From Acidimicrobiia bacterium (GTDB lineage Bacteria > Actinomycetota > Acidimicrobiia > Spongiisociales > ZC4RG35), in contig JBAVPF010000549.1 of assembly GCA_049692815.1 (NCBI GenBank), positions 1-24,000 on the forward strand: 24,000 nucleotides of DNA, read 5' to 3'. Made by a program: the position numbers and the translations under genes. Below are positions 182 through 20,604 of the stretch, in pieces (positions within the stretch are counted from its first letter, which is position 1; each line of letters starts with the position of its first letter). The notes beneath the pieces were generated by a model. The model was given only the letters and a program-made list of their open reading frames with translations. It was not told the DNA's origin and searched no databases.

Positions 182-1690
182 ATGATTGCCCGCGCGCACA
201 AGGCCCACTCGAGCCCGTCAGGTGCCGATCCCGAGCCCCATGGGCCCGAGATATCGGACCAGCGTTTCCGGGTGGCTTTCGAGCACGCCTCCATCGGGAT
301 GGCCATCACCGATCCGAGCGGCACCCTCGTCATGTGCAACGACGCGCTGTGCCAAATGCTCGGCTACAGCAGACACGAGCTCCAGGGCCGGAGGTTCTCG
401 GAAATCACCCATCCGGAGGACCAATCCGCCTCGGAGGCCGAGCTGCACAAGCTCGTCGGCGGTGGAGCTGCGTCCACGCATTTCGAGAAGAGGTATCTGC
501 ACCGTGACGGTCATGTGGTCTGGGCCACAGTCGACGTCTCTTCCGTGGTCGACGCGGCAGGAAAAGTGCTCCACTTCGTCTCTCAGATCGAGGACAGCTC
601 TGCGCGGAGGCGCGCCGAGGCGGCCGTCAACGCCAGTGAGGAAGCATTCCGCCTCGCGTTCGAATCGGCTGCCTCGGGAATGGCGCTCATCGACCCGGCC
701 ACAGGCCGTTTCCTCAAGGTGAACCGCGCCGGCTGCGAGATGCTCGGATACGACCAGGAGGAGATCCTCACCCGCACGATTCAGGATGTCACCGCACCGG
801 CAGATCGCGAGAAGAGCTTCGCGCGATTCCGCAGCGTGATCAGCGGCGAACAGCCCTACTCCAGGGCCAGCCTCCACTACCTGAGGGCGGATGGCTCGAA
901 GGCCTACGCCATCGTGTCGACCGCACTGGTCAAGGATGCCGATGGCAGGCCGCTCCACATGGTGGCCAACGTCGTGGACATAACCGAGCAAGTGGAGGCA
1001 CGAGACCAGTTGGCCGAGATGGTTGCCTCCAAGGACCAACTGATCGCCTCGGTCTCACACGAGCTGCGAACGCCCCTCACAGCGATACTCGGTTTCGCAG
1101 AGATCCTCCGCGGCGAGCAGACGCACCTTTCCAGCGCGGAACGAGTCGAGCTGGTGCAGAGCATCGCCAATCAGACAGGTGACCTGTCGAACATCGTCGA
1201 AGACCTCCTCGTCGCGGCAAGGGCCGACAACGACAGCCTGGTGGTGGCCCGTGTCCCTGTGGACCTCCGTGCCCAGGCGGCTCAGATCCTGGAGACGATC
1301 GACGTCAACGGATCCGAGGATGTGACCCTCTCGGGTGACAGCATCCGGGCGTGGGGCGATCCAGCGCGCGTGCGGCAGATCCTCCGCAACCTCATCTCGA
1401 ACGCCTTTCGCTACGGGGGTGGCGGAGTGGAGGTGCGGACCCGCCAATGCGGCCCCCGTTCGTGTGTCGAAGTCATCGACGAAGGCGAGGGCATTCCCGA
1501 AGGAGAGCGGGATCTGATCTTCGAGCCGTACCAGCGTTCACCGAGCACGCCGGGGCTCACCGCGTCGGTAGGGCTCGGCTTGACCGTGTCCCGCAAGCTG
1601 GCTGCTCTCATGGGCGGCTCGCTCGAGTACCGATACGAGGGTGGAAAGAGCATCTTTGAGCTTTCCCTGACATCTGCCGGTACCGGTTGA
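182..1690 (+). CDS. Cytoplasmic sensor histidine kinase with two PAS domains
   Basis: Two PAS-like repeats (FRVAFEHASIGMAI..., FRLAFESAASGMALID...). H-box SHELRTPLTAILGFAEIL, N-box LRNLISNAFRYG, G1 DEGEGIP, G2 GLGLTVSRKLA. No TM segment and no adjacent response regulator. Confidence 0.9.
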   Translation: MIARAHKAHSSPSGADPEPHGPEISDQRFRVAFEHASIGMAITDPSGTLVMCNDALCQMLGYSRHELQGRRFSEITHPEDQSASEAELHKLVGGGAASTHFEKRYLHRDGHVVWATVDVSSVVDAAGKVLHFVSQIEDSSARRRAEAAVNASEEAFRLAFESAASGMALIDPATGRFLKVNRAGCEMLGYDQEEILTRTIQDVTAPADREKSFARFRSVISGEQPYSRASLHYLRADGSKAYAIVSTALVKDADGRPLHMVANVVDITEQVEARDQLAEMVASKDQLIASVSHELRTPLTAILGFAEILRGEQTHLSSAERVELVQSIANQTGDLSNIVEDLLVAARADNDSLVVARVPVDLRAQAAQILETIDVNGSEDVTLSGDSIRAWGDPARVRQILRNLISNAFRYGGGGVEVRTRQCGPRSCVEVIDEGEGIPEGERDLIFEPYQRSPSTPGLTASVGLGLTVSRKLAALMGGSLEYRYEGGKSIFELSLTSAGTG

Positions 1691-2214: not shown

Positions 2215-2369
2215 TCTCGCAACACCACCCGGCGCCGGAGACCCGCAAGCGACTCCGACACCTCGCTCTCACTCCTTTCGTCATCCGATAGCTGCACCGG
2301 CTCCGAAGAGGGGCAAGGAAACAAGCAGCTGACAGAAGCGCAGCTGAGGATTTCGAAAGGAGTTTCCCC

Positions 2370-3167
2370 ATGAGAATCGTGAAGACGGCCTTATTGGCCA
2401 TGGCCCTGGCGATCGTCCCGGCAACCGCCGCACTGGCGCAGACGGCTGAGGGCGAGGTCATCGTGGTGCACGGAGTACCCGACCTCGCCGTGGACATCTA
2501 CGTCAACGGTGACTTGACGTTCGAGAACTCCGAATTCGGCGACGTGTTCGGCCCCCTCTCCCTCCCGGAAGGCAGCTATGACATCGAGATCTACGTCACT
2601 GGCGCAGACCCATCCTCGGAGGACCCGGCCCTCTCCGGCTCGGCGGACCTGCCGGCCGGGGCGGTAGCCACCATCGCTGCCTACCTGCAGGAGGGCGGCG
2701 CTCCGACCTTGGGTGTGTTCGTCGAGAACAACGCGTCGACTGCTGCCGGTGACGCCCGCATCACCGCCCGCCACCTGGCCGATTTCGGCGCCGTCGACGT
2801 GCTGGCCAATGACGCCGCGGTTTGGGAGGGTGTGACCAACGGCGCAGGTGCAGATACCGACGTGCCGGCCGACACCTACAACATCAAGATCACCGCGGCC
2901 GGCGACCCCGCCACCGTGGCCTACGACCAGGACCTGGCTCTCGCCGAGGGGACGAACACCATCGCCTACGCGATCGGCTCGGTCTCAGGAGAGTCCTTCC
3001 AAGTCGTGGCTGCCACCCTCAGCGGGCTGGCCACTGCTCCGGAGGGTGTCCCCACCGGTGACGCCGGCTTGATCGAGCAGAACGGGCTCATGGTCCCTGC
3101 GGCCATCGCCGCTCTGGCCATCGTCGCCCTGGGCGGGTCCCTGTTCCTGGCTCGCGAGCAGCGATAG
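2370..3167 (+). CDS. Secreted DUF4397 domain protein with C-terminal hydrophobic anchor / sorting-signal-like tail
   Basis: Signal peptide MRIVKTALLAMALAIVPATAALA|QT. DUF4397-like repeats (VIVVHGVPDLAVDIYVNGD..., ARITARHLADFGAVDVLAND...). C-terminus is VPTGDAG-LIEQNG-LMVPAAIAALAIVALGGSLFLA-REQR (motif, hydrophobic stretch, basic tail). AAAGGAG RBS upstream. Confidence 0.75.
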   Translation: MRIVKTALLAMALAIVPATAALAQTAEGEVIVVHGVPDLAVDIYVNGDLTFENSEFGDVFGPLSLPEGSYDIEIYVTGADPSSEDPALSGSADLPAGAVATIAAYLQEGGAPTLGVFVENNASTAAGDARITARHLADFGAVDVLANDAAVWEGVTNGAGADTDVPADTYNIKITAAGDPATVAYDQDLALAEGTNTIAYAIGSVSGESFQVVAATLSGLATAPEGVPTGDAGLIEQNGLMVPAAIAALAIVALGGSLFLAREQR

Positions 3168-3236: not shown

Positions 3237-3980
3237 ATGCCGAAACCCACGCCCCAGAACGACAGGAGCCGCAGGAGGACCGCCCGAGCCCTGGGAGTGC
3301 TGGCTGCCCTACTCCTCATCCTCGCCGGCGCGATGGCCCTCGGGAAGCGAGACACCGTCGGGAACACCGACCGGTTCGGCACTCCCCCTTCCACACTGCC
3401 CAGTTCGGCGACCACGAGCACCGGGGGAACCGGGCTCACCGGAGACCTCCCGGACGACGACCCCGGCGGCATCCCGGCCAACGAGCACAGCCTCCTTGCC
3501 GAGGTTGCCAGGACGGGCGGGCCACAGCCCAACTACCTCCGCATCGACTCCCTCGGGGTCTCCGCACCGATTGTGCCCACGGGCGTCGACCAGGCCACCG
3601 GTCTCATGGAGGTTCCCGCCAATGTCGACGAAGTTGCCTGGTATCGGTACGGGCCCGAACCGGGACAAGCGGGGTCTTCCGTTCTGGCCGCACACGTCGA
3701 TCTCGAGGGGGAGGGCCCCGGAGTCTTCTTCGAGCTGCGCGAGATCGAGCCGGGGGACCGGATCGTCGTCGAGTTCGATGACGGGACCGTGCAGCGGTTC
3801 ACAGTGGAGGCGAGGACGATCTATCTGAAGGATGAGCTGCCCATCGAGTCGGTCTTCAGGCGGCAGGGGACGCCGGTGCTGACCCTGATCACGTGCGGAG
3901 GGGCATTCGACGACTCGGCACGTCGCTACGACAGCAATGTCGTGGTCTACGCAGTCCCCTCTGAATACACAACGCGGTGA
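3237..3980 (+). CDS. Class F sortase (membrane-anchored transpeptidase)
   Basis: N-terminal TM anchor ARALGVLAALLLILAGAMAL, Pro/Thr-rich linker. Catalytic core has LAAHVD (His), TLITCGG (Cys) and a downstream Arg (RRYDSNVVVYA). This length and layout are typical of actinobacterial class F sortases. Confidence 0.85.
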   Translation: MPKPTPQNDRSRRRTARALGVLAALLLILAGAMALGKRDTVGNTDRFGTPPSTLPSSATTSTGGTGLTGDLPDDDPGGIPANEHSLLAEVARTGGPQPNYLRIDSLGVSAPIVPTGVDQATGLMEVPANVDEVAWYRYGPEPGQAGSSVLAAHVDLEGEGPGVFFELREIEPGDRIVVEFDDGTVQRFTVEARTIYLKDELPIESVFRRQGTPVLTLITCGGAFDDSARRYDSNVVVYAVPSEYTTR

Positions 3981-4042
3981 GAAGAACGTCCTCGACCCGA
4001 AGCCAGGTCATCCGACAGGGCGAACGGCGACGAAGACCAAGC

Positions 4043-4471
4043 ATGAGATTGCATGAGCAGAGATGGGTCGACACTCCTCTGGAGAGAGCTTTCGCCTTCA
4101 CTTCCGACTTCTCGAACATCGAGGCTTGGGATCCCGGTGTCGTCAGCTCGACCCAGATAGGAGACGGATCGGTCGGGGTCGGCACCAGGTACGAGCTCGA
4201 CGTGAGGTTTGGCCTCTCCACGATCCCGATGATCTATGAGATCACCGAATACGAGACACCGAACCGGGTCGTCCTCGTCGGAAAGGGCACAAAGCTAGAA
4301 GCGGTCGACCAAATCGAATTCTCATCGCAGGACAACATGACACTCGTCGAATACCGCGCCGACCTCGAGTTCAAAGGGCTCGTCAGGTATGCGGTGCCCC
4401 TGCTGTCGCCCGTCTTGAAAAGGGTGGGCGCCAGGGCCCTGGATGGGCTGGTCGACGCCCTGCAACGATGA
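4043..4471 (+). CDS. SRPBCC (START / polyketide cyclase-dehydrase-like) family protein
   Basis: MRLHEQRWVDTPLERAFAFTSDFSNIEAWDPGV...YEITEYETPNRVVLVGKG is typical of SRPBCC ligand-binding proteins. I prefer the internal ATG at 4043 to the track start at 3977, whose first 22 aa are Arg/Ser-rich and overlap the sortase end. Confidence 0.7.
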   Translation: MRLHEQRWVDTPLERAFAFTSDFSNIEAWDPGVVSSTQIGDGSVGVGTRYELDVRFGLSTIPMIYEITEYETPNRVVLVGKGTKLEAVDQIEFSSQDNMTLVEYRADLEFKGLVRYAVPLLSPVLKRVGARALDGLVDALQR

Positions 4472-4925
4472 GCAAGCTGTCGATCGCCGGATTCACCAAC
4501 CTCGGGCACCTGGCCCATTCCCGATCGTTCGACCGGGCGCTCCCCAGGATGGAGGACAAGACGGTCCTGATCACCGGTGCCACCGGAGGTCTGGGTCTCG
4601 TCGCCGCACACCGCCTCTCCTCGCCGGGCGCCCGTCTGATCATCGTCGGCCGCTCCAGGCCAAAGATCGACGCTGCCCTGGAACGCCTGTCATCGAATAC
4701 CATCGCCCTGCAAGCAGACCTCTCCCTCCTCTCCGAGGTGAAAGTTCTGACAAACGAACTTCTGGACAGAGAGGACAGCATCGACGTGCTCATCAACAAC
4801 GTCGCAGTCCTGCTTCCGGAGCGAGAGACGACGTCCGAGGGCCTGGAAACGACGGTGGCCACCAGGTCATACTGACCGAGATGTGCGCAGACCGTCTCCG
4901 GGGAACCGGCGCACGTCGCGCCTGA
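4468..4925 (+). pseudogene. Short-chain dehydrogenase/reductase (SDR) remnant: frameshifted and 3'-truncated
   Basis: N-terminal Rossmann motif KTVLITGATGGLG and NNVAV (NNAG-like) are present. The frame stops at 4875 (..ETTVATRSY*). The SDR-like sequence continues in another frame (GHQVILTEMCADRLRGTGARRA*, compare GHFLLTxLLLxRLR) to 4925. The catalytic YxxxK half is missing and the next gene on the opposite strand ends at 4944. Confidence 0.6.
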
Positions 4926-4943
4926 ACCACGCGACGGCGGTCG

Positions 4944-5939
4944 TCATAGGCCCGCCAACCCGGGTCGGACCCCATCGGCCACCCAATCGTCTACTGCAGC
5001 CCACTGCTCGAAGAGCCACTCGACACGCTCCGATCGCTCGGCCGGGATCGACTCTCTGGGTATCCGCCAGAACGCAGCAGTGACCGCTCGACCGACGAGC
5101 TCGCCGCTGAACATGTCCTTCACCGTGGCAAAACCCTCGAGACCACGATGCGCCATGACAACGACATCGGCCGTCGTGGCGTCCAACAGGGCAAGTGTGC
5201 CGCCCGGTCGTGGCGGGAGCACCTTTCGCAGGCCGCCCGCCAGCTCACCGAGGCTTCCCCCTTCCGCTTGCAGTCGTCGAACGTACCTGACCCGCTTGGC
5301 CTCGCTGTACCGGGTGCCCTCGGGGAAGATCAAGACCCCTTCGTCCTGCCCGAGATCACTGACGAGGTCACGTATGGCGTTGCGTTCCCGGGCCGAATCA
5401 GCCGACTCCCGGTCCACGAACACGTTTGGCAGCCGATTGCCGGCGAGGTCCAGCGCCGGATCGACCAGCAGCTCTTTCTTGAGCACGTAGCGAAGCCGCA
5501 CCCCGTGTCGCTTGGTCACCAGCTCCGCGGGCAGAAGAGAGTCGATCAACGAAGCGTGCCGCGCCAGCAGCACTATTGGCCCCGGGGTCACCACGTCGTC
5601 AGATTCGACGGCGAATTCGAGCTGGAAGAGGGCCGTGATCGTGGTCAGGTTCCAGCCGGCCCACACCTCCTGGAGGCGGTATGTCAGATCGAGGCTCTGC
5701 CGACTCGGGAGGAGGCCGACGATCGCCAGGGCCACCACCGCCCAGACCTCGCCCAACAGGTAGACCCAAGCCAACAGGACGAGACGCCAGGTCACCCAGC
5801 GTCTACGTCGGGCCAGGCCGAGAACCACGTCGACCGCGACCCCGATGAGTATCAGCAGAGGCAGCAGAGCCGTCGTGACGATGAAGGCGGCGAGCAACCC
5901 TGGGATGGTCATCATCCTTCTGGCGAGGGGGCTGTCCAT
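4944..5939 (-). CDS. Membrane-bound lysophospholipid / 1-acyl-sn-glycerol-3-phosphate acyltransferase family protein (PlsC-like)
   Basis: N-terminal TM helices. HX4D acyltransferase motif in LLARHASLIDSLLP, and FPEGTR motif. Starts 13 nt after the anti-sigma stop, so probably the third gene of the sigma operon. Confidence 0.8.
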   Translation of the reverse strand: MDSPLARRMMTIPGLLAAFIVTTALLPLLILIGVAVDVVLGLARRRRWVTWRLVLLAWVYLLGEVWAVVALAIVGLLPSRQSLDLTYRLQEVWAGWNLTTITALFQLEFAVESDDVVTPGPIVLLARHASLIDSLLPAELVTKRHGVRLRYVLKKELLVDPALDLAGNRLPNVFVDRESADSARERNAIRDLVSDLGQDEGVLIFPEGTRYSEAKRVRYVRRLQAEGGSLGELAGGLRKVLPPRPGGTLALLDATTADVVVMAHRGLEGFATVKDMFSGELVGRAVTAAFWRIPRESIPAERSERVEWLFEQWAAVDDWVADGVRPGLAGL

Positions 5940-5952
5940 CCGCTTCAGGCCC

Positions 5953-6186
5953 TCACACCCCGGTGATGGGGAAGGAATCCAACTCGGCGACTATCCGGTC
6001 CCACAAATGATGCGGCGGCTCCGAGTCGGGGATGATGGCTGCCGCCACGGAGATGGCGGTGTCCAACTCGCGCTCACACGACGGGCACGATTGCATGTGA
6101 TGCTCCAGCGTCCTCTCCTCATCAGCCGGGAGGGCGCGAAGCGCGTAGAGATCGACCATCTCGAGCAGGAGATCGTGGACCATCAC
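5953..6186 (-). CDS. Minimal zinc-binding anti-sigma factor (ZAS, zf-HC2), 77 aa, soluble
   Basis: HxxxCxxC motif (H30-MQS-C34-PS-C37) plus an N-terminal His (H4) 26 residues upstream. No TM segment and no C-terminal sensor domain. The start (GTG 6186 / ATG 6183) overlaps the sigma stop TGA (6185-6183), indicating translational coupling. Confidence 0.75.
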   Translation of the reverse strand: MMVHDLLLEMVDLYALRALPADEERTLEHHMQSCPSCERELDTAISVAAAIIPDSEPPHHLWDRIVAELDSFPITGV

Positions 6187-6761
6187 GGCGCCACTCCGGC
6201 CAGAGACACCGACAGCTTCTTCATACCGCTTCGGATACGGCTCTTGACCGTCCCTTCCGGGGTGTCCAGCCTCTTCGCCACCTCGACGTAGCTGAGCCCC
6301 CCAAAATAGGCGAGAGCTATGGCCTCACGCTCCGGCTCCGGCAGCTCGTCGAGTGCGGATCGGACGGTGTCGGACAGGCTGCTCTGCCAAACTTGGTCCT
6401 CGATATCAGGCTGAACGTCTTCGGGGACCTTCTCCTCGCGCCGGTATCTCGCCTCTTCGGAGCGAACCATGTCGACGGCACGTCGATGGGCGAGCGTCAT
6501 GAGAAATGTGCGCAGTGCCCCCCGGGCCGGGTCGTATTTGCCAGCGGCCTTCCAGAAGGTCACGAAGACCTCCTGTGCCACGTCCTCTGCCAGTGTCTCG
6601 TCGCGGAGCACGCGCATGGCCATCGTCTTCACCGCACCCCCGTAGAGCTGAAAGACGGATTCCAGAGAGGAGCGGTCACCTTCGGCCACCGCGGATGCGA
6701 GGACGGAGTCGTCAAGGTTCGGGTCGATAACCGGGTCGGGCATCAGCTGAGTCAGCGACAA
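6183..6761 (-). CDS. ECF (group 4) sigma-70 family RNA polymerase sigma factor
   Basis: Region 2 (LAEDVAQEVFVTFWKAAGKYDPARGALRTFLMTLAHRRAVDMVR) and region 4 HTH (EREAIALAYFGGLSYVEVAKRLDTPEGTVKSRIRSGMKKL). Start is either TTG at 6761 (AGGGAG 6 nt upstream) or ATG at 6743. The track's 7049 start adds about 100 Arg/Ser-rich aa and overlaps the divergent gene, so I reject it. Confidence 0.85.
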   Translation of the reverse strand: MSLTQLMPDPVIDPNLDDSVLASAVAEGDRSSLESVFQLYGGAVKTMAMRVLRDETLAEDVAQEVFVTFWKAAGKYDPARGALRTFLMTLAHRRAVDMVRSEEARYRREEKVPEDVQPDIEDQVWQSSLSDTVRSALDELPEPEREAIALAYFGGLSYVEVAKRLDTPEGTVKSRIRSGMKKLSVSLAGVAP

Positions 6762-6792
6762 TACGGGCTCCCTTCGAACGCGTGTCGATCTC

Positions 6793-6817
6793 GACGAGCG
6801 TTGACACCAGATTGTTC
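6793..6817 (-). promoter_or_regulatory. ECF-type promoter candidate upstream of the sigma gene (autoregulation)
   Basis: Minus strand reads cccGAAC-aatctggtgtcaacgct-CGTCga. This is an exact GAAC / 17-nt spacer / CGTC arrangement about 30-50 nt upstream of the candidate start codons. Confidence 0.4.
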
Positions 6818-6927
6818 GGGGCCGAGCCGCGCCCCGGATGATGGAAACCCAGGATGAAAGGCCACCCCCGGGCTGTCGACGGCCCGAGTCGACGTGCCGG
6901 CAACTAGCCTCGCACGCCAGCCACCAC

Positions 6928-7923
6928 ATGACCGCAACCCAATTCTCCGAGATCGAGCTGGCACTGACCGCCGCCGCCCTCAATGGCGATCCAGCCGGGC
7001 TGTATCGCCTCGCCACCGGGCTCATGGATGAAGGCGTTGCTTTCGACACGCTTCTGTTCGACTACTTGTTCCCCGCCGAGCGTGAAGTCGGCCGCCGCTG
7101 GCAGCAAGGCGACTACCTGGTGGCAGAGGAGCACGCCGCCACCGCGGCCGTCGAGACCGTGATCTCACTGCTGAGTGGCATGCTGGATCAGCCGACCAGC
7201 GCAACTCATGTCGTGGTGGCCGCGGCGGAAGGGGACGAGCACTCGCTGCCCGGGCGTGCCGTGGCCGCATACCTCCTCTTTCTCGGCTACAGGACGACGT
7301 TTCTCGGCGGCAGCATGCCGGCAGCGGACCTCCGGGACTTCCTGGAAGCGGAGCGGCCCGAGGCCCTCGTGCTCTCCTGCGCCATCACCAGTCATCTCGT
7401 CGGGGCTCGTTCGATGGTCGCCGCCGCCCACGCCGTCGACGTTCCCGTTGTTGTCGGTGGCAATGCCTTCGGGCCCGAGGGCCGCTGGGCAGAGGTCACC
7501 GGTGCAGATGCCTGGGTCTCCTCGCCCCTCGAGCTGCCGACGGTGATCGATCGATGGGCCGATCCGGGCATCGCGGAACTGAAGGGGGCAGGCGAACTTC
7601 CCTCCGGCCTCGTCGAAGTCATCTCGCACCGTTCCGAGATCGTCGCCCGCACCGAGACAGCCCTCGAGCGGGAGGAATCAGCGCCGGCCGCCACCACCTA
7701 TCACGACGCAGCGCGCATTCTGCTTGGAGCCGTGGAAGCGTCTCTACTCGTCGCCGATCACGAGCCGGCACTCGAGATGATTCGCTGGCTGATGAGCGCT
7801 GCGCCCGCCCGTGGGATCGACGGCGACGAGGTGGTCACCGCCCTCCTCGGAGTCCTCGAGGGGTCCTGGCTCGAGGCTCATGACATGCTGGGCGCTGCCG
7901 TGCGCGAAATGAACTCTCGATAG
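6928..7923 (+). CDS. Cobalamin (B12)-binding domain protein, CarH/LitR-like sensor module without a DNA-binding domain, with an unrecognised ~120-aa helical C-terminal extension
   Basis: B12-binding_2 helical-bundle signature VGRRWQQGDYLVAEEHAATAAVETVI. It is followed by a Rossmann-like B12-binding domain (HVVVAAAEGDEHSLPGRAVAAYLLFLGYRTTFLGGSMP...ALVLSCAITSH...VPVVVGGNAF). No MerR-type HTH at the N-terminus. I prefer ATG 6928 to the track's 6838. Confidence 0.75.
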   Translation: MTATQFSEIELALTAAALNGDPAGLYRLATGLMDEGVAFDTLLFDYLFPAEREVGRRWQQGDYLVAEEHAATAAVETVISLLSGMLDQPTSATHVVVAAAEGDEHSLPGRAVAAYLLFLGYRTTFLGGSMPAADLRDFLEAERPEALVLSCAITSHLVGARSMVAAAHAVDVPVVVGGNAFGPEGRWAEVTGADAWVSSPLELPTVIDRWADPGIAELKGAGELPSGLVEVISHRSEIVARTETALEREESAPAATTYHDAARILLGAVEASLLVADHEPALEMIRWLMSAAPARGIDGDEVVTALLGVLEGSWLEAHDMLGAAVREMNSR

Positions 7924-7959
7924 TCATCCAATCGCGGCAGCGGGTACGAACATACCCAT

Positions 7960-8715
7960 GTGACTGAGAACAAATCGACCCGCCTACGCACCTACAACGT
8001 CGTCATGGGATTGCTCCATGCCGCCCAGGCCATTGCCGTGATAGTCCTCGCCAACGACTTCACCTTGCCCGTGACCGGGACCTTCCTCACCGGCCCGCCC
8101 GGAGTTGGTTCCCCGGAGGTCACCGTCATCGGCAACCTCAGCGTCGCCTGGGGAGTCGCCATCTTCCTCTTCCTGTCTGCGGCAGCTCACCTGATCATCG
8201 CCACACCCGGCGTCTTCGGCTGGTACGAGCGCCAACTCAGCACAAATCGCAACTATGCCCGTTGGGTCGAGTACTCCCTCTCCTCTTCCGTGATGGTGGT
8301 CCTGATCGCCATGCTCGTGGGCATATTCGATGTCGCCGCTCTGCTCGGCCTGGCCGGCGTGAACGCCTCGATGATCCTCTTCGGCCTACTCCAGGAGAAA
8401 TACGAGACGCCCGGAAAGGACGTCAGTTGGACGGCCTACTGGTTCGGCGTGATCGCCGGTGCGGTCCCCTGGGTCGCCATCGGCCTCTACCTGATCGGAC
8501 CCGGCGTCGAGACCAACCCGCCCGGCTTCGTGTACGGCATCTTCTTCTCCCTGTTCGTCTTCTTCAACGTGTTCGCCGTCGTGATGGTGCTCCAATACAA
8601 GAAGGTGGGGCCGTGGGCCCGCTACCGATTCGGTGAGAGCACCTACGTGCTGCTCAGTCTCATTGCCAAGTCGGCTCTGGCCTGGCAGGTGTTCGGCGGG
8701 ACGCTCGCTGTCTGA
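7960..8715 (+). CDS. Heliorhodopsin (inverted-topology microbial rhodopsin)
   Basis: Seven hydrophobic helices, and near-colinear similarity to heliorhodopsin 48C12 as I recall it. Matching blocks: LANDFTLPVTGTFLTGPPG, RWVEYSLSSSVMVVLIA (counterion Glu), GVNASMILFGLLQEKY, PGFVYGIFFSLFVFFN, LQYK, and the retinal Schiff-base Lys in SLIAKSALAWQVFGGTL. Conserved His residues in GLLHAAQ and SAAAHLII. GTG start 36 nt after the upstream gene. Confidence 0.9.
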   Translation: MTENKSTRLRTYNVVMGLLHAAQAIAVIVLANDFTLPVTGTFLTGPPGVGSPEVTVIGNLSVAWGVAIFLFLSAAAHLIIATPGVFGWYERQLSTNRNYARWVEYSLSSSVMVVLIAMLVGIFDVAALLGLAGVNASMILFGLLQEKYETPGKDVSWTAYWFGVIAGAVPWVAIGLYLIGPGVETNPPGFVYGIFFSLFVFFNVFAVVMVLQYKKVGPWARYRFGESTYVLLSLIAKSALAWQVFGGTLAV

Positions 8716-8726
8716 CCGTTCCAGAC

Positions 8727-8759
8727 ATATTGACATCTATCAATATATCCCTCTATCCT
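8727..8759 (+). promoter_or_regulatory. AT-rich promoter plus palindromic operator candidate for the LLM oxidoreductase (leaderless-type)
   Basis: ATATTGA-catcta-TCAATAT perfect 7-bp inverted repeat (8727-8746) overlaps TTGACA (8730-8735). TATCCT (TAnnnT-type -10) lies at 8754-8759 after an 18-nt spacer. The ATG at 8767 is 8 nt downstream with no Shine-Dalgarno. Confidence 0.4.
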
Positions 8760-8766
8760 TCCGGCC

Positions 8767-9825
8767 ATGCGTTTCGGTCTCTTTCTGCAGCCGGTTCACC
8801 CACCGACCGAGCACCCCACCGTCGCCCTGGAGCGAGACCTCGACCTGGTGGAGCTGCTCGACGACCTGGGGTACGCAGAAGCCTGGGTCGGTGAGCACCA
8901 CAGCACCGGATGGGAGAACATCGCGGCGCCAGATGTGTTCATCGCCGCCGCCGCAGAGCGAACCCGGCAGATCCGTCTCGGCACGGGGGTGATCCAGCTC
9001 GGACTGCACCACCCCCTCGTCGTCGCCGACAGGATGATCTTCCTCGACCACCTCACCAGGGGTCGGGCGATGTTCGGTGTCGGCGTTGGAGGCGGGCTTC
9101 CATCTGACCTGAAGGTCTTCGGGCTCACACGGGAAGATGCCGGGAGACGTCTCGAGGAGAGCCTCGACGTCATACTTCGGCTGCTGGAGTCGGAGGAGCC
9201 GGTCGATGAGAAGACCGACTGGTTCGAGCTGCACGATGCGACGCTTCAGCTGGAGCCGTACTCGAAGCCACACCCGACCTTCGCCATGGCAACCACCGAT
9301 CCCCGCAACGTCGAGTTGATGGGCCGGCTAGGGGGACATGTGCTCACCGGCCCGATCCCCGAGCGCGTGCCGGATCTGTTCCAGCATCTGGAGAAGGGCG
9401 CTGCCTCGGCGGGAAGGGCCGCTTCACGAGATCAGATCGTGCTCTCCTATGCGATGCACGTGGCCGAGACCCGGGACGAGGCGATGGCACAGATACGGGA
9501 GGGCGCCATTCATGAGCATTACGAGTTCAACGTCGAGGTGAACGGGGCGCCACGCCCTTCGATCAGCCCGGACGAGTGGTTTCAGAGCTACGCGGAGCGA
9601 CACATCGTGGGAACGCCTGACGATGCAGCCGAGAAGATCGAGCGTCTGCTGGAAGTCTCGGGAGGCTTTGGCGGCATCCTGTTCACCTCCCGTGACTGGG
9701 CCGGCCGGGAGGCATCCTGGGCCAGCTGGGAGCTCTTCGCCAGACAGGTCGCCCCCAGATTCCAGGGCCATCTGCGACAACAAGCCCGCGCCGCCGAGAC
9801 CGCCTCCCGCTTGAACACCCGATAG
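8767..9825 (+). CDS. LLM-class (luciferase-like) flavin-dependent monooxygenase/oxidoreductase
   Basis: MRFGLFLQP...LGYAEAWVGEHHSTGWENIAAPDVFIAAAAERTRQIRLGTGV...HPLVVADR is a typical luciferase-like monooxygenase N-terminal TIM-barrel signature. Confidence 0.85.
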   Translation: MRFGLFLQPVHPPTEHPTVALERDLDLVELLDDLGYAEAWVGEHHSTGWENIAAPDVFIAAAAERTRQIRLGTGVIQLGLHHPLVVADRMIFLDHLTRGRAMFGVGVGGGLPSDLKVFGLTREDAGRRLEESLDVILRLLESEEPVDEKTDWFELHDATLQLEPYSKPHPTFAMATTDPRNVELMGRLGGHVLTGPIPERVPDLFQHLEKGAASAGRAASRDQIVLSYAMHVAETRDEAMAQIREGAIHEHYEFNVEVNGAPRPSISPDEWFQSYAERHIVGTPDDAAEKIERLLEVSGGFGGILFTSRDWAGREASWASWELFARQVAPRFQGHLRQQARAAETASRLNTR

Positions 9826-9842
9826 ACGACGAGTAGGGGCCG

Positions 9843-11480
9843 GTGACCCAATACGGTGCTACCTCGGTGAGAGTCACAGCCGGGCACGATTCGGGATCCG
9901 CACCCTGGTGGCAGACCGCCGTCGTCTACCAGATCTACCCGCGTTCCTTCGCCGACGGGAACGACGACGGGGTCGGCGACCTCCGCGGCATCGTCGACCG
10001 CCTGGACTACGTGGAGCGCCTGGGTGTCGACGCCATCTGGCTCTCGCCCATCTTCCGCTCGCCGATGGCCGACTTCGGGTATGACGTGTCCGACTACGAG
10101 AGCATCGATCCCCTCTTCGGGGAACTGGCCGACTTCGAAGAGCTCCTGGCCGGGGCGCACGCCAGAGGCATACGGGTCTTCCTCGACCTGGTCCCCAACC
10201 ACACTTCCGACGAGCATCCGTGGTTCATCGAGTCGAGATCGTCCCGTGACGGCCCGAAGAGAGACTGGTACATCTGGCACGACCCGGGCCCCGACGGTCT
10301 GCCCAACAACTGGGAGAGCTTCTTCGGTGGCCCTGCCTGGGAGCTCGACGAGACGACCGGCCAGTACTACCTGCACCTCTTCCATCGCAAGCAGCCGGAT
10401 CTCAACTGGCGCAACCGCCAGGTCAGAGCCGCCATCTATGAGGTGATGCGGTACTGGCTCGACCGTGGCGTGGACGGATTTCGGATCGACGTCCTCTGGC
10501 TGCTGCTCAAGGACGAGGAGTTTGCGGACGACCCCGAGCAGCCGCCGCTGACGGGCCCCGAGTTGGTGTACGGGCGCTTCCGCCCAGGATGTGAAGACCG
10601 GCCCGGCATACAGGAGATCGTCGCCGAGATGAGACAGGTCGCCGACGGGTATGACGAGCGGGTGCTGATCGGGGAGATCTACCTACCGGTCGATCGACTC
10701 GTCCGCTATTACGGAGAGGAGCTCACCGGCATCCACTTGCCATTCAACTTCGGGCTGGTGACTCTGCCCACCTGGAGCGCCACGGCCATCCGCGACCTCG
10801 TCGAGGCCTACGAGGCGGCCCTACCCGCCGGCGCCTGGCCCAACTGGGTACTGGGAAATCACGATCAGCCCCGGATCACCACGAGGGTGGGACAGGAGAG
10901 ATCCAGGGCAGCCCAGATGCTGTTGTTGACACTTCGCGGCACCCCGACCTGCTACTACGGCGACGAGCTGGGCATGCCCGACTCCGTCATAGCCGAGGAG
11001 GTGGCGCTCGACCCCCAGATCGAGGCGGGTCGCTCCCGGGACGGGGCGCGTACGCCCATGCAATGGGACGCCGGCGCCGGTGCCGGATTCACCTCGGCGG
11101 GCTCAACGCCCTGGCTGCCCGTCGACCCGTCGTATACGACCATCAATGTCGCCGCCCAAGAGGCCGACCCCCGGTCCACGCTCGCCTTCTTCCGGCGGCT
11201 GACCCATCTGAGAAGGGAGCGCCCCGGGTTGACGGTTGGCTCCATCTCCTTCGTCGATTCACACCACGAAGACGTGCTGAGCTACCTCAGGGAGTGGGAG
11301 GGGGCCCGCATCCTCGTCGTCCTCAACTTCGGGAAGCAGCCGGCCACGGTGGACCTCACCGAGGTCTCAACCGGGGGCCTGATCCTCTGTGCGACCGATA
11401 TGACTCGGGAAGGCAGGGTCGAGCTCGCCCGTGTAGCTCTCCAGCCGGGCCAGGGCCTCGTCATCGACATCCGCGACTAG
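9843..11480 (+). CDS. GH13 alpha-glucosidase / oligo-1,6-glucosidase family
   Basis: WWQTAVVYQIYPRSFADGNDDGVGDLRGI opening. GH13 conserved regions DLVPNH (I), GFRIDV (II, nucleophile Asp), IGEI (III, acid/base Glu), LGNHDQPR (IV). GTG start. Confidence 0.9.
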   Translation: MTQYGATSVRVTAGHDSGSAPWWQTAVVYQIYPRSFADGNDDGVGDLRGIVDRLDYVERLGVDAIWLSPIFRSPMADFGYDVSDYESIDPLFGELADFEELLAGAHARGIRVFLDLVPNHTSDEHPWFIESRSSRDGPKRDWYIWHDPGPDGLPNNWESFFGGPAWELDETTGQYYLHLFHRKQPDLNWRNRQVRAAIYEVMRYWLDRGVDGFRIDVLWLLLKDEEFADDPEQPPLTGPELVYGRFRPGCEDRPGIQEIVAEMRQVADGYDERVLIGEIYLPVDRLVRYYGEELTGIHLPFNFGLVTLPTWSATAIRDLVEAYEAALPAGAWPNWVLGNHDQPRITTRVGQERSRAAQMLLLTLRGTPTCYYGDELGMPDSVIAEEVALDPQIEAGRSRDGARTPMQWDAGAGAGFTSAGSTPWLPVDPSYTTINVAAQEADPRSTLAFFRRLTHLRRERPGLTVGSISFVDSHHEDVLSYLREWEGARILVVLNFGKQPATVDLTEVSTGGLILCATDMTREGRVELARVALQPGQGLVIDIRD

Positions 11481-18048: not shown

Positions 18049-20604
18049 TCAGAGCAGACCCTGCGACCCTGCTGACCTGACGGCTTCTTCCCGGGTGGAA
18101 GCATCCAGCTTGACGAGGACTGCCGAGACGTGATTCTCAACGGTTCGTCGTGAGAGAAAGAGTCGGTCGGCGATCTCCGGGTTGGAGAGACCTTCTCCCA
18201 GGAGTTGAAGCACCTCCGCCTGGCGTGCAGTGAGACCGGCAGCATGCTCGCGGGTGGCACGCCCCTTTCCCCGGGGAACGGCCACACCCTGGTCGCGAAG
18301 GTCCTTCCTCACTTTGGAGGCGACGGCGTGGGCGCCGAGGGAGTCGAGTATCTCGAGTGACCGGAACCGGGCTTCTCGATCTCCCCTCGTGAGGGCTACT
18401 GCCTCCTCGTATGGCATTCCCTTCTCCGCCCAGTGGGCAGCGGCAAGCTTCCACTCGCCTGCGATTGCTTGGGCATGAGGTCTGGGCAGCCCAACGGGGG
18501 CCTCCCCCAACTCTCCCAACATCCACAGCCAAGAGGCGAGGGCGCCCGACGGCCATGGGAATTCCTGAGTCAAGCCCCGCCCAACGAGCTCGCGGCACAT
18601 CTCAGCCCGATCCTTTGTCATGTTCCCGTCGAGCCAACTCTCCTCCGCCAGAGCAACCGCCACGTGCAGCAGGTAGTCGATCTCGTTGCTCTGCTCGGCT
18701 ATCTGCCAGGCGGCTCGAAGGCTCTCCCGAGCGCCCGGGCGACCGCGTCGCATCCGCAGGAGCCCTTGAATGCGTAGGAGGTGAACATCGGCGTTGGCAT
18801 GAGAACCGAGGTTCTCGGTGACCAAGTCGTCGGCCTCGCCCCACCGCCCTTTTCTCACCAACGCATCGGCGTAGACCGCGTTCGCCTCGATCTCCAGGAA
18901 GGAAAGCTCATATCTGATCGCCACTGCACGGGCACGCTGGGCCACATCCTGCTGGAGGTCCACATCGTCTTGTTCCTGTCCGGTGTAGGCGAGACTGCGC
19001 AGGGCGGTGACTTCCTCGTAGCGGTGCATTCCCACTTCGGCCCTGCGCCGGGCCTCCTCGATGAGATTGCGCCCGCCCGGGTCACCACGTACGTACTCGA
19101 GCAGACCCTTCACTACTTGAGCCTGAATGACGGCAACCTCGCTCCCGGTGGCCTCACCCATCTCGATCGCTCTCTCCACCATCTCGTCGGCACGGCGGCC
19201 CTCACCTTGGTGTATGAGGAGATCGGCATATCTGGCAAATGCTTCGGCGAGGTCGCGGCTTTCACCACCCGGCTCCAGGACGCGAATCGCTTCGACTGCA
19301 TAGGCTTCCGCCGCAGTTGTGCGGGCATGAGTCTCGTTGACCGCGACGGCCAAGGCGAGGGCCCCTGCCAGCTCACGGTCCGAGCTGTGGCCGCGGTGGA
19401 GATCTATGGCCCTGTCGAGAAGATCCACTGCCTCCGGATTTGCCAGGAAGTACTCGATCTCGCCCCACTCGGTGAGAATCCGAGCCTTCTCCCGGTCCGA
19501 CAGTCGGTCCATGTAGGGCTGGATGGCGCGGTAGTGAGCGGAGGCCTCACGATGACTGGCCACCTCGGCGGCCCTTCTCGCCGCGATCGGCGCCAACTCG
19601 ACCAACTTGTCTATATCCCCGGCTCCCACTGCGTGGTGAACCAAACGAGCCGGGTCGGTACCGTCCGGCAATACGTCCAACACCTTCTTGTGGATCCTCA
19701 CGCCCTCGCTGATGGTCAGGGAGGCCTCGATGGCCCGTCGGATCAACTCGTGGCGGAACCCGACCGTCTCACCATCCACCTCCAACAAACCGTGATGCTC
19801 ACCTTCTGAGATCCCGGCCTCGATGTCGCCGAACAGTGACTCGAGCTCGCTTCGGTTGGTCCTCTCCGGGATGACCGAGAGTTGAAGCAGAAGCGCTCTG
19901 GCCATCGAGGAAAGGCGCCCGACCCTCGCCATCACGGAGTCGCGAACCGAGGAAGGGACCTCGTCGCCGACCGACAGAGCCATCTCGGTGACGTAGAAGG
20001 GGTTGCCCTTTGTCGCTTCGAGGACCCTGTCGGCATCGAGACCCGAGTTGGACAGAATCCGGGCGACACTCAGACGGGAGAGCCCACTGAGCTCGATCCT
20101 TGTGACACTCTCCGACGGGAGTGCCCCCAGAACCGTGCGGAGAGGATGTTCGAAGTCCACTTCCTCGTTCCGATAGGTGAGCAACATCAAGGCGTTGGTT
20201 CGTGCGAAACGACGACCGACGTACTTGATTGCATCCAGGGTCGCTTCGTCCGACCAATGAGTGTCTTCCACAACGATTACGGCGGGTTGGGGCGATCCCG
20301 TGCACAGCTCGAGAAAGGCCTGCATCGCGACGTGACGATCACCCGCCTCCAGAGCCTGACGCAGCGGGACGTCCTCACGAGCCATGTCCCACAGCGGGCC
20401 GAACGGCCGTGGTGTCTGAAGATCGTCGCAGAAGCCGAGGTGGACCCGGGCCGAGTCACCAATCGAGGTGAGAAAACCCCTCACCAACGAGCTCTTGCCT
20501 ATGCCCGCCTCGCCACGGATGAGCACGACCTTGCCGCCGGAGTGGGGCAAGTCTTCGAACAGGCTGTGGAGGAGGTCGAGCTCCTCCTCCCTCTCCAGAA
20601 GCAT
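18049..20604 (-). CDS. LAL-type (large ATP-binding LuxR family) transcriptional regulator
   Basis: N-terminal AAA/STAND ATPase with Walker A GEAGIGKSSL and Walker B-like VIVVEDTHW. Long helical/TPR-like middle region. C-terminal LuxR HTH LTARQAEVLQLLGEGLSNPEIADRLFLSRRTVENHVSAVLVKL. Confidence 0.9.
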   Translation of the reverse strand: MLLEREEELDLLHSLFEDLPHSGGKVVLIRGEAGIGKSSLVRGFLTSIGDSARVHLGFCDDLQTPRPFGPLWDMAREDVPLRQALEAGDRHVAMQAFLELCTGSPQPAVIVVEDTHWSDEATLDAIKYVGRRFARTNALMLLTYRNEEVDFEHPLRTVLGALPSESVTRIELSGLSRLSVARILSNSGLDADRVLEATKGNPFYVTEMALSVGDEVPSSVRDSVMARVGRLSSMARALLLQLSVIPERTNRSELESLFGDIEAGISEGEHHGLLEVDGETVGFRHELIRRAIEASLTISEGVRIHKKVLDVLPDGTDPARLVHHAVGAGDIDKLVELAPIAARRAAEVASHREASAHYRAIQPYMDRLSDREKARILTEWGEIEYFLANPEAVDLLDRAIDLHRGHSSDRELAGALALAVAVNETHARTTAAEAYAVEAIRVLEPGGESRDLAEAFARYADLLIHQGEGRRADEMVERAIEMGEATGSEVAVIQAQVVKGLLEYVRGDPGGRNLIEEARRRAEVGMHRYEEVTALRSLAYTGQEQDDVDLQQDVAQRARAVAIRYELSFLEIEANAVYADALVRKGRWGEADDLVTENLGSHANADVHLLRIQGLLRMRRGRPGARESLRAAWQIAEQSNEIDYLLHVAVALAEESWLDGNMTKDRAEMCRELVGRGLTQEFPWPSGALASWLWMLGELGEAPVGLPRPHAQAIAGEWKLAAAHWAEKGMPYEEAVALTRGDREARFRSLEILDSLGAHAVASKVRKDLRDQGVAVPRGKGRATREHAAGLTARQAEVLQLLGEGLSNPEIADRLFLSRRTVENHVSAVLVKLDASTREEAVRSAGSQGLL

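Follow-up and report, generated by a model that had tools for sequence, protein, structure and literature searches.

A photocobilin as candidate light input of a SigK-type sigma factor regulon in Acidimicrobiia

Question and answer in outline

What signal releases an extracytoplasmic function (ECF) sigma factor that is encoded together with a very short anti-sigma and divergently from a vitamin B12-binding protein and a heliorhodopsin? The question is raised by a stretch of 24,000 nucleotides from an Acidimicrobiia bacterium (assembly GCA_049692815.1, contig JBAVPF010000549.1, positions 1 to 24,000; hereafter the window), where sigma factor, anti-sigma and an acyltransferase lie on the minus strand and the B12 protein and heliorhodopsin on the plus strand. 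A preliminary description of the sequence had proposed the B12 protein and/or the heliorhodopsin as the missing input. All five genes are real and have strong domain support. Our comparative analysis gives a slightly better than even chance to the following reading: a SigK-type ECF sigma regulon that answers light or photo-oxidative stress is controlled from this region, with the B12 protein, a predicted photocobilin, as input. Work on SigK and its anti-sigma RskA in mycobacteria goes back two decades. Heliorhodopsins abound in aquatic Actinobacteria, their function and regulation being unclear.

The B12 protein belongs to the photocobilins

The B12 protein gene (6928..7923, plus strand; PF02607 + PF02310) starts at ATG 6928 and encodes 331 aa, a start backed by a 100%-identical database protein and by homologues of ~330 aa. 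It carries the adenosylcobalamin (AdoCbl) site signature G55-x2-W58, E68-H69, G102-x2-H105 and G127-x3-P131 and is predicted to be light-responsive, the CarH-like light-responsive signature having been defined as GxxW, W-x9-EH, GxxH and GxxxP (PMC11796333). Residues W58, E68, H69, G102, D103, H105 and G127 are invariant across 27 homologues, with D-x-H as the lower-ligand motif. The protein comes from a bona fide light-sensor family. That it lacks a DNA-binding domain had been described correctly: no helix-turn-helix is found with Pfam or NCBIfam, the N-terminus starts 7 residues before the four-helix bundle, and the CarH model covers only positions 87-254, its B12 module, leaving out the MerR-type helix-turn-helix.

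What had gone unrecognised is the C-terminal domain, ~115 residues after the Rossmann domain that have no Pfam match and form five helices. The AlphaFold2 model (pLDDT 91, pTM 0.89) packs helices 226-330 on the B12 module. The top full-length Foldseek matches in the PDB are the photocobilins SasPcob (8J2W/8J2X, TM 0.78-0.80) and AbPcob (8J2Y, TM 0.84-0.85), and the structures of CarH, LitR and AerR (7TE2) match the B12 half only. The family profile matches 8J2W with E=1.5e-55 over residues 13-308, globin domain included. Judged by profile and predicted fold, the protein is a standalone photocobilin, that is, a member of the dual AdoCbl/bilin photoreceptor family consisting of a CarH-like AdoCbl module and a C-terminal bilin-binding globin (photoglobin), with no output domain.

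Biliverdin binding by this particular protein is plausible. W287 is invariant and aligns with Trp296 of SasPcob, a contact of the bilin D ring, yet the position of SasPcob Asp270, a key residue for biliverdin binding, is Ala in the window protein (Glu in most homologues), where an Asp occurs one residue earlier. AbPcob has His at that position and still binds biliverdin, weakly (PMC10979010). Characterised photocobilins bind AdoCbl and biliverdin, sense in the visible range, change quaternary structure in light and act on partner domains or proteins; for the standalone members, cellular partners are stated as unknown (PMC10979010).

A SigK-like sigma factor with an eroded anti-sigma

The sigma factor (6183..6743, minus strand, stop codon 6183-6185) has Sigma70_r2 and r4_2 domains (PF04542, PF08281, PF07638), regions 2 and 4 being the only ones found by Pfam. 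Its gene had been placed at 6761-6183; the gene stands, and its start is most likely ATG 6743 rather than 6761, which gives 186 aa. With the sigma start at 6743 and the photocobilin start at 6928, the shared intergenic region measures 184 bp and not about 170 bp as first given. The best NCBIfam model is SigK (PRK09646) at 168 bits, below the subfamily cutoff of 226, so that the protein is SigK-like rather than an equivalog. Its translation contains no cysteine; the redox pair C133/C183 of M. tuberculosis SigK has no counterpart and the SigK disulfide switch is absent. By sequence, the sigma factor falls in the described subgroup of SigK proteins without cysteines, where RskA is frequently truncated (Nocardia RskA 1-81, still inhibitory) or absent (PMC7509140). 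The same source states the activating signal of SigK as unknown.

The second gene of the operon (5953..6186, minus strand) encodes a 77-aa RskA-type zinc anti-sigma reduced to the N-terminal domain (zf-HC2, 26.2 bits; RskA_N, 24.7 bits against a gathering score of 27). As described, the gene begins within the end of the sigma gene, the overlap between its GTG and the sigma stop codon being 4 nt, and a gap of 13 nt lies between it and the acyltransferase gene. The predicted zinc ligands are H4, H30, C34 and C37, so that HxxxCxxC is present and the sequence fits the zinc-binding anti-sigma (ZAS) pattern H/C-x23-26-H-x3-C-x2-C. HxxxCxxC occurs in 21 of the 22 anti-sigmas in the seed set of our hidden Markov model (HMM; the exception is in locus L013), and short and long anti-sigmas alike keep it together with the upstream His. 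The 77-aa protein has no C-terminal domain; in the long forms this domain is RskA_C and not a ChrR-type cupin.

Across orthologous loci (designated by L numbers) the anti-sigma is at different stages of completeness. Eleven loci encode a full-length membrane RskA (219-240 aa, transmembrane helix, RskA_C) and 11 others a soluble N-domain of 67-85 aa, while no anti-sigma domain is detectable in 14 loci that have sigma factor and photocobilin (HMM on six-frame open reading frames, 4-21 kb fetched; L024, L025, L026, L028, L030, L032, L034-L037, L040, L043, L044 and L069). RskA_C scores above threshold at the orthologous position in L002 and in called genes of L126, L127, L129 and L131. The nearest sigma relative, L126 (78% identical sigma), encodes a 207-aa RskA with RskA_C, followed by acyltransferase, photolyase, KASIII, short-chain dehydrogenase (SDR), SRPBCC and sortase genes, an arrangement from which the window has lost the C-terminal half of RskA, the photolyase, the KASIII and half of the SDR. 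The RskA half appears from this comparison to have gone by a separate, in-frame loss of ~130 codons in the window lineage. What had been presented as a minimal ZAS anti-sigma is an RskA whose truncation is recent, which makes it a known variant and not a new kind (PMC7509140). The anti-sigma does lack a sensor domain, as first noted; the conclusion that an input must hence be missing is weaker than claimed, given so recent a truncation and the 207-aa RskA with RskA_C in a 78% relative.

The sigma promoter and its regulon

Alignment of 27 intergenic regions between sigma and B12 genes gave three conserved elements: a TANNNT block by the sigma start, a TAGCCT-type box ~20 nt before the photocobilin start and, between the two, the motif CATCC-N16-CCGAA(C/T) pointing toward the sigma gene. 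A position weight matrix built from 11 sigma-upstream sites was scanned across all loci (2.4 Mb counting both strands), with Markov shuffles and reversed sequence as controls. At 14 bits or more it returned 75 sites, against 6-13 in the shuffles and 3 in reversed sequence; at 17 bits or more, 53 against 0-3 and 0; at 20 bits or more, 34 against none in either control. The sites lie upstream of sigma, heliorhodopsin and SRPBCC(-SDR) genes, FAD-amine-oxidase-DUF1365-cyclopropane fatty acid (CFA)-synthase-like operons, DUF4397-sortase, acyltransferase, DUF378 and DUF2867 genes. Occupancy is 4 of 5 for DUF378, 9 of 15 for the FAD-amine-oxidase operons, 6 of 14 for SRPBCC and 1 of 76 for photocobilin, and the motif is directly upstream of neither photolyase (0 of 5 loci) nor MpaB-oxygenase genes (0 of 11).

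Seven loci from an independent route formed an untrained confirmation set. Here the motif precedes the sigma gene in L126, L127, L129 and L131, and it scores 27.3 bits before the FAD-amine-oxidase operon of L131, 22.5 before fasciclin in L129, 22.7 before acyltransferase, 22.2 before SRPBCC, and 14.9 and 12.4 before heliorhodopsin genes. Fasciclin (mpt83/mpt70) is a classical SigK target. Sites upstream of fasciclin and of the FAD-amine-oxidase-DUF1365-CMAS genes are as expected of a SigK regulon, a likeness drawn from the target genes; the SigK site of M. tuberculosis reads roughly CCATCC-N16-CCGAAT. We conclude on these computational grounds that CATCC-N16-CCGAA(C/T) is the conserved promoter recognised by the sigma factor, and that it is predicted to drive four units of the window: the sigma operon, heliorhodopsin, DUF4397-sortase and SRPBCC-SDR.

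The autoregulatory site of the window (6810..6843, minus strand, 29.2 bits) consists of a -35 CATCC at 6840-6836, a 16-nt spacer and a -10 CCGAAC at 6819-6814, with a spacing fixed across related loci. A different promoter, GAAC-N17-CGTC at 6793-6817, had been suggested earlier; it recurs in only one of 26 related intergenic regions (in variant form, L027) and was rejected, its GAAC being part of the -10 element just given. The heliorhodopsin site (7922..7955, plus strand, 23.1 bits; -35 CATCC 7925-7929, -10 ACGAAC 7946-7951) occupies the 36 bp that separate the photocobilin stop codon from the heliorhodopsin gene and ends 4 nt before the GTG at 7960. The DUF4397 gene is preceded by CATCC-N16-TCCGAA at 2279..2312 (plus strand, 19.6 bits); the distance from motif to DUF4397 gene is ~51-58 nt in L036, L035, L037 and L031 and 16 nt in L021. 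The weaker SRPBCC site (4006..4039, plus strand, 13.2 bits) ends 4 nt before ATG 4043, a spacing that returns in L026, L028, L033, L019 and L126 at 21.7-28.0 bits. Many transcripts of the regulon may be leaderless, as the distance from the end of the motif window to the start codon is often exactly 4 nt.

The two remaining conserved elements are of housekeeping type. TATTGT (6758..6763, minus strand) belongs to the TANNNT block ('GACAATACG' on the plus strand) that aligns in nearly all 27 intergenic regions and is a probable basal promoter of the sigma gene. TAGCCT (6905..6910, plus strand) is the -10 box of the photocobilin gene; L128 and L132, like the 27 aligned regions, have 'ACTAGCCT' or a TANNNT variant here. 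No SigK-type motif precedes the photocobilin gene of the window (3.3 bits), and the housekeeping-type box in its place indicates that photocobilin is made independently of the sigma factor.

Genes for a small DUF378 membrane protein (L016, L032, L034, L040) and for NAD-binding/DUF2867 proteins (L020, L023, L007) also carry sigma-type promoters and appear to be further members of the regulon. A variant motif with the same -35 (CATCC/CGTCC) and a CCGTA -10 was seen before the B12 gene in a distant clade (L075:9843-9876) and before MpaB-oxygenase genes in L054 and L055; a paralogous ECF sigma may be the one that recognises it.

The acyltransferase had been taken for an output, and this is borne out in relatives: the PlsC-like membrane protein gene (4944..5939, minus strand; PF01553, E=1e-13) is third in the sigma operon of the window and sits in the sigma operon also in L019, L021, L023, L126, L103 and L104, or it bears its own sigma-type promoter (L030, L033, L130, L131). 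The sigma operons of L126 and L132 include a photolyase gene as well, placed behind the acyltransferase gene and overlapping its end.

As to what the regulon is for, its enzymes are those of the core singlet-oxygen regulon under sigmaE-ChrR in Rhodobacter, made up of photolyase, a CFA-synthase homologue and, divergent from rpoE, the RSP1091-1087 operon (PMC3546557); they also correspond to genes at the mycobacterial sigK locus. In M. kansasii, light induces the SigK targets mpk83 and mpk70 (PMC9861118). With the shared gene set and this light induction, a photo-oxidative or light-stress role of the regulon is well supported by analogy.

Heliorhodopsin on the output side

The heliorhodopsin (7960..8715, plus strand) matches PF18761 with E=7e-100 over residues 9-249 and NF038020 with 322 bits (cutoff 100), and a Lys, the residue expected to bind retinal in TM7, is present in its last helix ('SLIAKSALAW'). 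It had been a candidate for the missing input: alone or with the B12 protein it would sequester the anti-sigma and release the sigma factor. Its gene directly follows photocobilin in 12 loci found with the B12 protein as seed, in L080, in L126 and at the P0176 place; soluble proteins are known to be bound and modulated by heliorhodopsins, namely photolyase (PMC9769723) and glutamine synthetase (PMC9529153); and a sigma-induced heliorhodopsin could give positive feedback. The sigma factor's own promoter, however, precedes heliorhodopsin at 13 bits or more in 16 of 18 loci, the motif being found there also in L126 and L131, which would have the protein made after the sigma factor is active. Moreover, many sigma-photocobilin loci have no detected heliorhodopsin gene, and in L030, L044, L069 and L131 heliorhodopsin heads SRPBCC-SDR far from photocobilin. 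Computationally, then, heliorhodopsin is assigned to the predicted outputs of the sigma factor and not to its inputs, and we regard a sensor role for it as very unlikely.

Sigma factor and photocobilin stay together

In 27 B12-seeded loci the sigma gene is the divergent neighbour of the photocobilin gene. At least 14 of these have no heliorhodopsin gene detected in the fetched locus (L004-7, L010, L011, L015, L016, L025, L027, L031, L032, L034, L040), and none is among the called genes of L128; heliorhodopsin is dispensable for the pairing. In other loci the order has changed and the two genes are still less than 10 kb apart (L019, L021, L023, L024, L029, L035-37, L044, L069). One displaced group has the sortase operon directly upstream of photocobilin and the sigma gene 2-6 kb off, and in L130 photocobilin heads HeR-SRPBCC-SDR (HeR, heliorhodopsin). 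A second clade, more distant, has the sigma gene convergent with the B12 gene (L075, L076), and a fasciclin gene is adjacent in L076. The metagenome-assembled genome (MAG) OF_bin.16 has the sigma gene and one photocobilin paralogue on one contig (L025); on another (L033) it has a second paralogue, placed after the sortase operon and beside the regulon cluster with its promoters, which lacks sigma.

For a reciprocal test, eight sigma orthologues (64-78% identity) were taken whose long contigs did not figure among the B12 matches. Photocobilin lies within 6 kb in five of the eight and is adjacent and divergent in four. A sigma-seeded metagenome scan added two true orthologues (L080, L081), both with photocobilin; its other matches were SigK-like, at most 52% identical over the full length, and without photocobilin. 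The two divergent units of the locus do not assort independently, in line with the grouping first suggested for them. The association is strong and not obligatory.

Several points weigh against photocobilin as the input. The remaining three of the eight sigma-seeded loci, all with full-length RskA, have no photocobilin within 6 kb, and one of these genomes has it on another contig (L129 and L047), whence adjacency is not obligatory. All loci come from MAGs of Acidimicrobiia or relatives, and shared ancestry inflates the synteny counts. Distant photocobilin paralogues (L041-L079) occupy unrelated metabolic contexts, next to dehydrogenase, gluconolactonase, asparaginase, amidase and ABC transporter genes and with no regulators among these neighbours. 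No natural fusion of photocobilin with sigma or RskA was found. The anti-sigma of the window retains a full predicted zinc-thiolate site (H, H, C, C) and could sense oxidation itself. The promoter assignments are computational.

Common descent, lost adjacency and the unrelated settings of the paralogues would all be expected if the genes were neighbours by inheritance within one class and photocobilin had no functional relation to the regulon. Pairing nevertheless survives at least four gene orders (divergent and adjacent; sortase-photocobilin with the sigma gene 2-6 kb away; L130; convergent in L075/L076), and several such distinct rearrangements argue against pure inheritance of synteny. Flanking genes outside the set (luciferase-like monooxygenase, amylase, ABC transporters) are not conserved, and the other conserved neighbours are tied to the sigma factor by the promoter motif. 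Neutral synteny is accordingly rated highly improbable, and photocobilin is the best candidate for passing a light signal to the sigma factor.

How photocobilin may control the sigma factor

We infer control of the sigma factor through protein contact, in which photocobilin would either be a B12-dependent anti-sigma itself or modulate the N-domain of RskA. The grounds are the persistent pairing through rearrangements, the fact that this clade has eroded or lost the sensor part of RskA, the lack of any other conserved partner, and the precedents of AerR-CrtJ and of light-dependent oligomer changes in photocobilins. In the dark, an AdoCbl-bound photocobilin oligomer would hold the sigma factor, or its complex with the RskA N-domain, inactive. 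Light would remove the adenosyl ligand and change the quaternary structure, as in characterised photocobilins, and so free the sigma factor, which would then amplify itself and induce lipid remodelling, envelope proteins, heliorhodopsin and, in relatives, photolyase. The role of heliorhodopsin could come after this step, for instance in helping regulon enzymes in a light-dependent way. In the loci free of RskA no anti-sigma-like N-terminal extension was found on photocobilin, all proteins being ~325-335 aa long. We give somewhat less than even odds that this standalone photocobilin regulates the SigK-type ECF sigma in a light-gated way, whether as B12-dependent anti-sigma or as partner of the RskA N-domain.

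A different release is conceivable, in which the sigma factor is freed by sensing of oxidative damage: the zinc anti-sigma, in a ChrR- or RsrA-like manner, or the full-length RskA, by proteolysis, would respond to singlet oxygen, lipid peroxides or thiol oxidation. Photocobilin would then be a separate light sensor with another target, its position nearby owed only to membership of one light-response neighbourhood. The zinc motif kept in short and long anti-sigmas would serve such a mechanism, the regulon matches the sigmaE-ChrR core, whose lipid enzymes feed ChrR turnover (PMC3546557), regulated proteolysis of RskA and redox control of SigK are known (PMC7509140), and the three of eight sigma orthologues without nearby photocobilin all have full-length RskA. 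On the other hand, the 14 loci without detectable anti-sigma keep both sigma factor and photocobilin, the window sigma has no cysteines for a disulfide switch, and the short anti-sigma has no C-terminal domain of the ChrR type needed for the singlet-oxygen response. Damage sensing also leaves unexplained why the pairing persists through rearrangements and why sigma factor and photocobilin moved jointly away from the regulon (L025 vs L033). We consider it rather unlikely, and prefer photocobilin as the light input.

Other genes of the window

The DUF4397 gene (2370..3167, plus strand; PF14344, E=1e-27) encodes a secreted protein with a signal peptide and a hydrophobic and basic C-terminal tail resembling a sorting signal, a probable substrate of the sortase encoded next to it (3237..3980, plus strand; PF04203, E=7e-23). 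The sortase is a conserved neighbour across loci, and the two genes are paired in every locus. They are followed by the SRPBCC/polyketide-cyclase-like lipid-binding protein (4043..4471, plus strand; PF10604, E=9e-13; alternative start GTG 3977) and the SDR (4468..4875, plus strand), a pair conserved across loci. The SDR of the window covers only PF00106 profile positions 1-99 of 195 and is 135 aa long, as against ~306 aa for the full-length SDR (family f2) of relatives; within 4468-4943 it is cut after ~135 of ~306 codons and directly abuts the 3' end of the acyltransferase gene. In the matching interval of L126 there is a full SDR along with photolyase and KASIII genes, which indicates a deletion in the window lineage, with the SDR fragment as its scar. 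A KASIII-like (ACP_syn_III) gene stands beside SDR, SRPBCC and acyltransferase genes at L126:9538-10602, at L127:10340-11404 and at the P0176 place, and its recurrence adds to the impression of a regulon that makes or remodels some unusual fatty-acyl lipid.

Three further observations concern the surroundings. A cytoplasmic histidine kinase with tandem PAS domains (182-1690, plus strand) lies ~600 bp upstream of the DUF4397 promoter, with no adjoining response regulator seen. A near-consensus housekeeping promoter (TTGACA-18-TATCCT, 8730-8759, plus strand) precedes a luciferase-like monooxygenase and an alpha-amylase-family gene (8767-11480); the order heliorhodopsin-monooxygenase-amylase recurs in L126, and bacterial luciferase-like genes are among photoglobin neighbours (PMC8717448). 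An 851-aa regulator with AAA_16 and LuxR (GerE) domains, a large ATP-binding type (18049-20604, minus strand), is apparently unrelated.

Significance

If photocobilin acts as proposed, a standalone photocobilin would have its first identified physiological partner, the SigK/RskA family its first defined input signal (visible light), and a heliorhodopsin its first dedicated transcriptional regulator, inside a regulon for photo-oxidative lipid remodelling and DNA repair. The module joins three open problems, namely the SigK signal, the photocobilin partner and heliorhodopsin function, in a form that is small, conserved and tractable. Comparative data supply a promoter motif, a specific candidate protein pair for light-dependent binding and a regulon. 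Its members are heliorhodopsin, acyltransferase, FAD-oxidase-DUF1365-CFA-synthase, SRPBCC-SDR, a sortase with its substrate, and fasciclin; in relatives photolyase belongs to it too, as part of the sigma operon. The photocobilin-sigma pair could also serve as a green/red-light transcription switch.

Comparison with known systems

Every component comes from a known family, and light-linked ECF regulons are known. The closest is SigK-RskA (ECF18/ECF19) of Mycobacterium and other Actinobacteria, with which the locus shares the sigma family, an RskA_N/RskA_C anti-sigma, translationally coupled genes and a fasciclin (mpt83-like) target. The FAD-amine-oxidase-DUF1365-CFA-synthase genes also have counterparts at the M. 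tuberculosis sigK locus (Rv0449c-Rv0447c). A cysteine-less sigma with an ~80-aa truncated RskA is found in Nocardia, and SigK likewise has one autoregulated promoter, the Rv0449c promoter, and a second that is SigK-independent (PMC7509140). No photoreceptor has been described at SigK loci and no rhodopsin in the known regulon, whereas the present locus has photocobilin and a regulon with heliorhodopsin, acyltransferase, sortase and sortase substrate.

SigmaE-ChrR of Rhodobacter sphaeroides, Caulobacter and Vibrio cholerae is induced by light-generated reactive oxygen species (PMC5241685). It too pairs an ECF sigma with a zinc anti-sigma (HxxxCxxC), has an operon divergent from the sigma gene, and includes photolyase, a CFA-synthase homologue and lipid enzymes of the RSP1091-1087 type (PMC3546557). 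It differs in ECF group and promoter (TGATC-N18-CGTAT reported for Vibrio), in the C-terminal cupin sensor of ChrR, in an input that is oxidative damage rather than a photoreceptor, and in having neither photocobilin nor heliorhodopsin. The gene set common to sigmaE-ChrR, SigK and this module suggests one ancient photo-oxidative lipid response rewired to different sensors across phyla.

Standalone photocobilins were established as light sensors with two chromophores in 2024. The solved photocobilins SasPcob and AbPcob (8J2W, 8J2X, 8J2Y; Zhang et al. 2024) share with the window protein the three-part fold (four-helix bundle, Rossmann B12 domain, five-helix globin) and the W-x9-EH and (E/D)xH motifs at 26-33% identity, and SasPcob has the same standalone architecture of ~330 aa. 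A photocobilin from Acidimicrobiaceae has already been characterised (PMC10979010). The partners suggested for SasPcob are STAS, SpoIIE and PP2C proteins, with no mention of an ECF/SigK partner or a heliorhodopsin neighbour. In a limited search, the portions covered of papers on photocobilins (PMC10979010), photoglobins (PMC8717448), the mining of cobalamin photoreceptors (PMC11796333), heliorhodopsin gene context (PMC8612252), RskA (PMC7509140) and ECF reclassification (PMC7826278) contain no link between photocobilin and an ECF sigma or between heliorhodopsin and a sigma regulon.

LitR-LitS of Streptomyces and CarH/CarA with CarQ-CarR of Myxococcus resemble the locus in combining a B12 light sensor and an ECF sigma in clustered genes of one pathway. 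LitR and CarH are, unlike photocobilin, MerR-type DNA-binding repressors at promoters with carotenogenesis as output, and the trigger of CarQ-CarR is singlet oxygen, acting through CarF, rather than B12. AerR-CrtJ of Rhodobacter capsulatus differs in that the target of AerR is a DNA-binding repressor and that AerR has no globin domain and only 14% identity. Like photocobilin as proposed here, AerR is a standalone B12 photoreceptor domain, and its control over a transcription regulator goes through protein-protein contact alone; by this analogy AerR-CrtJ is the best precedent for how photocobilin may act.

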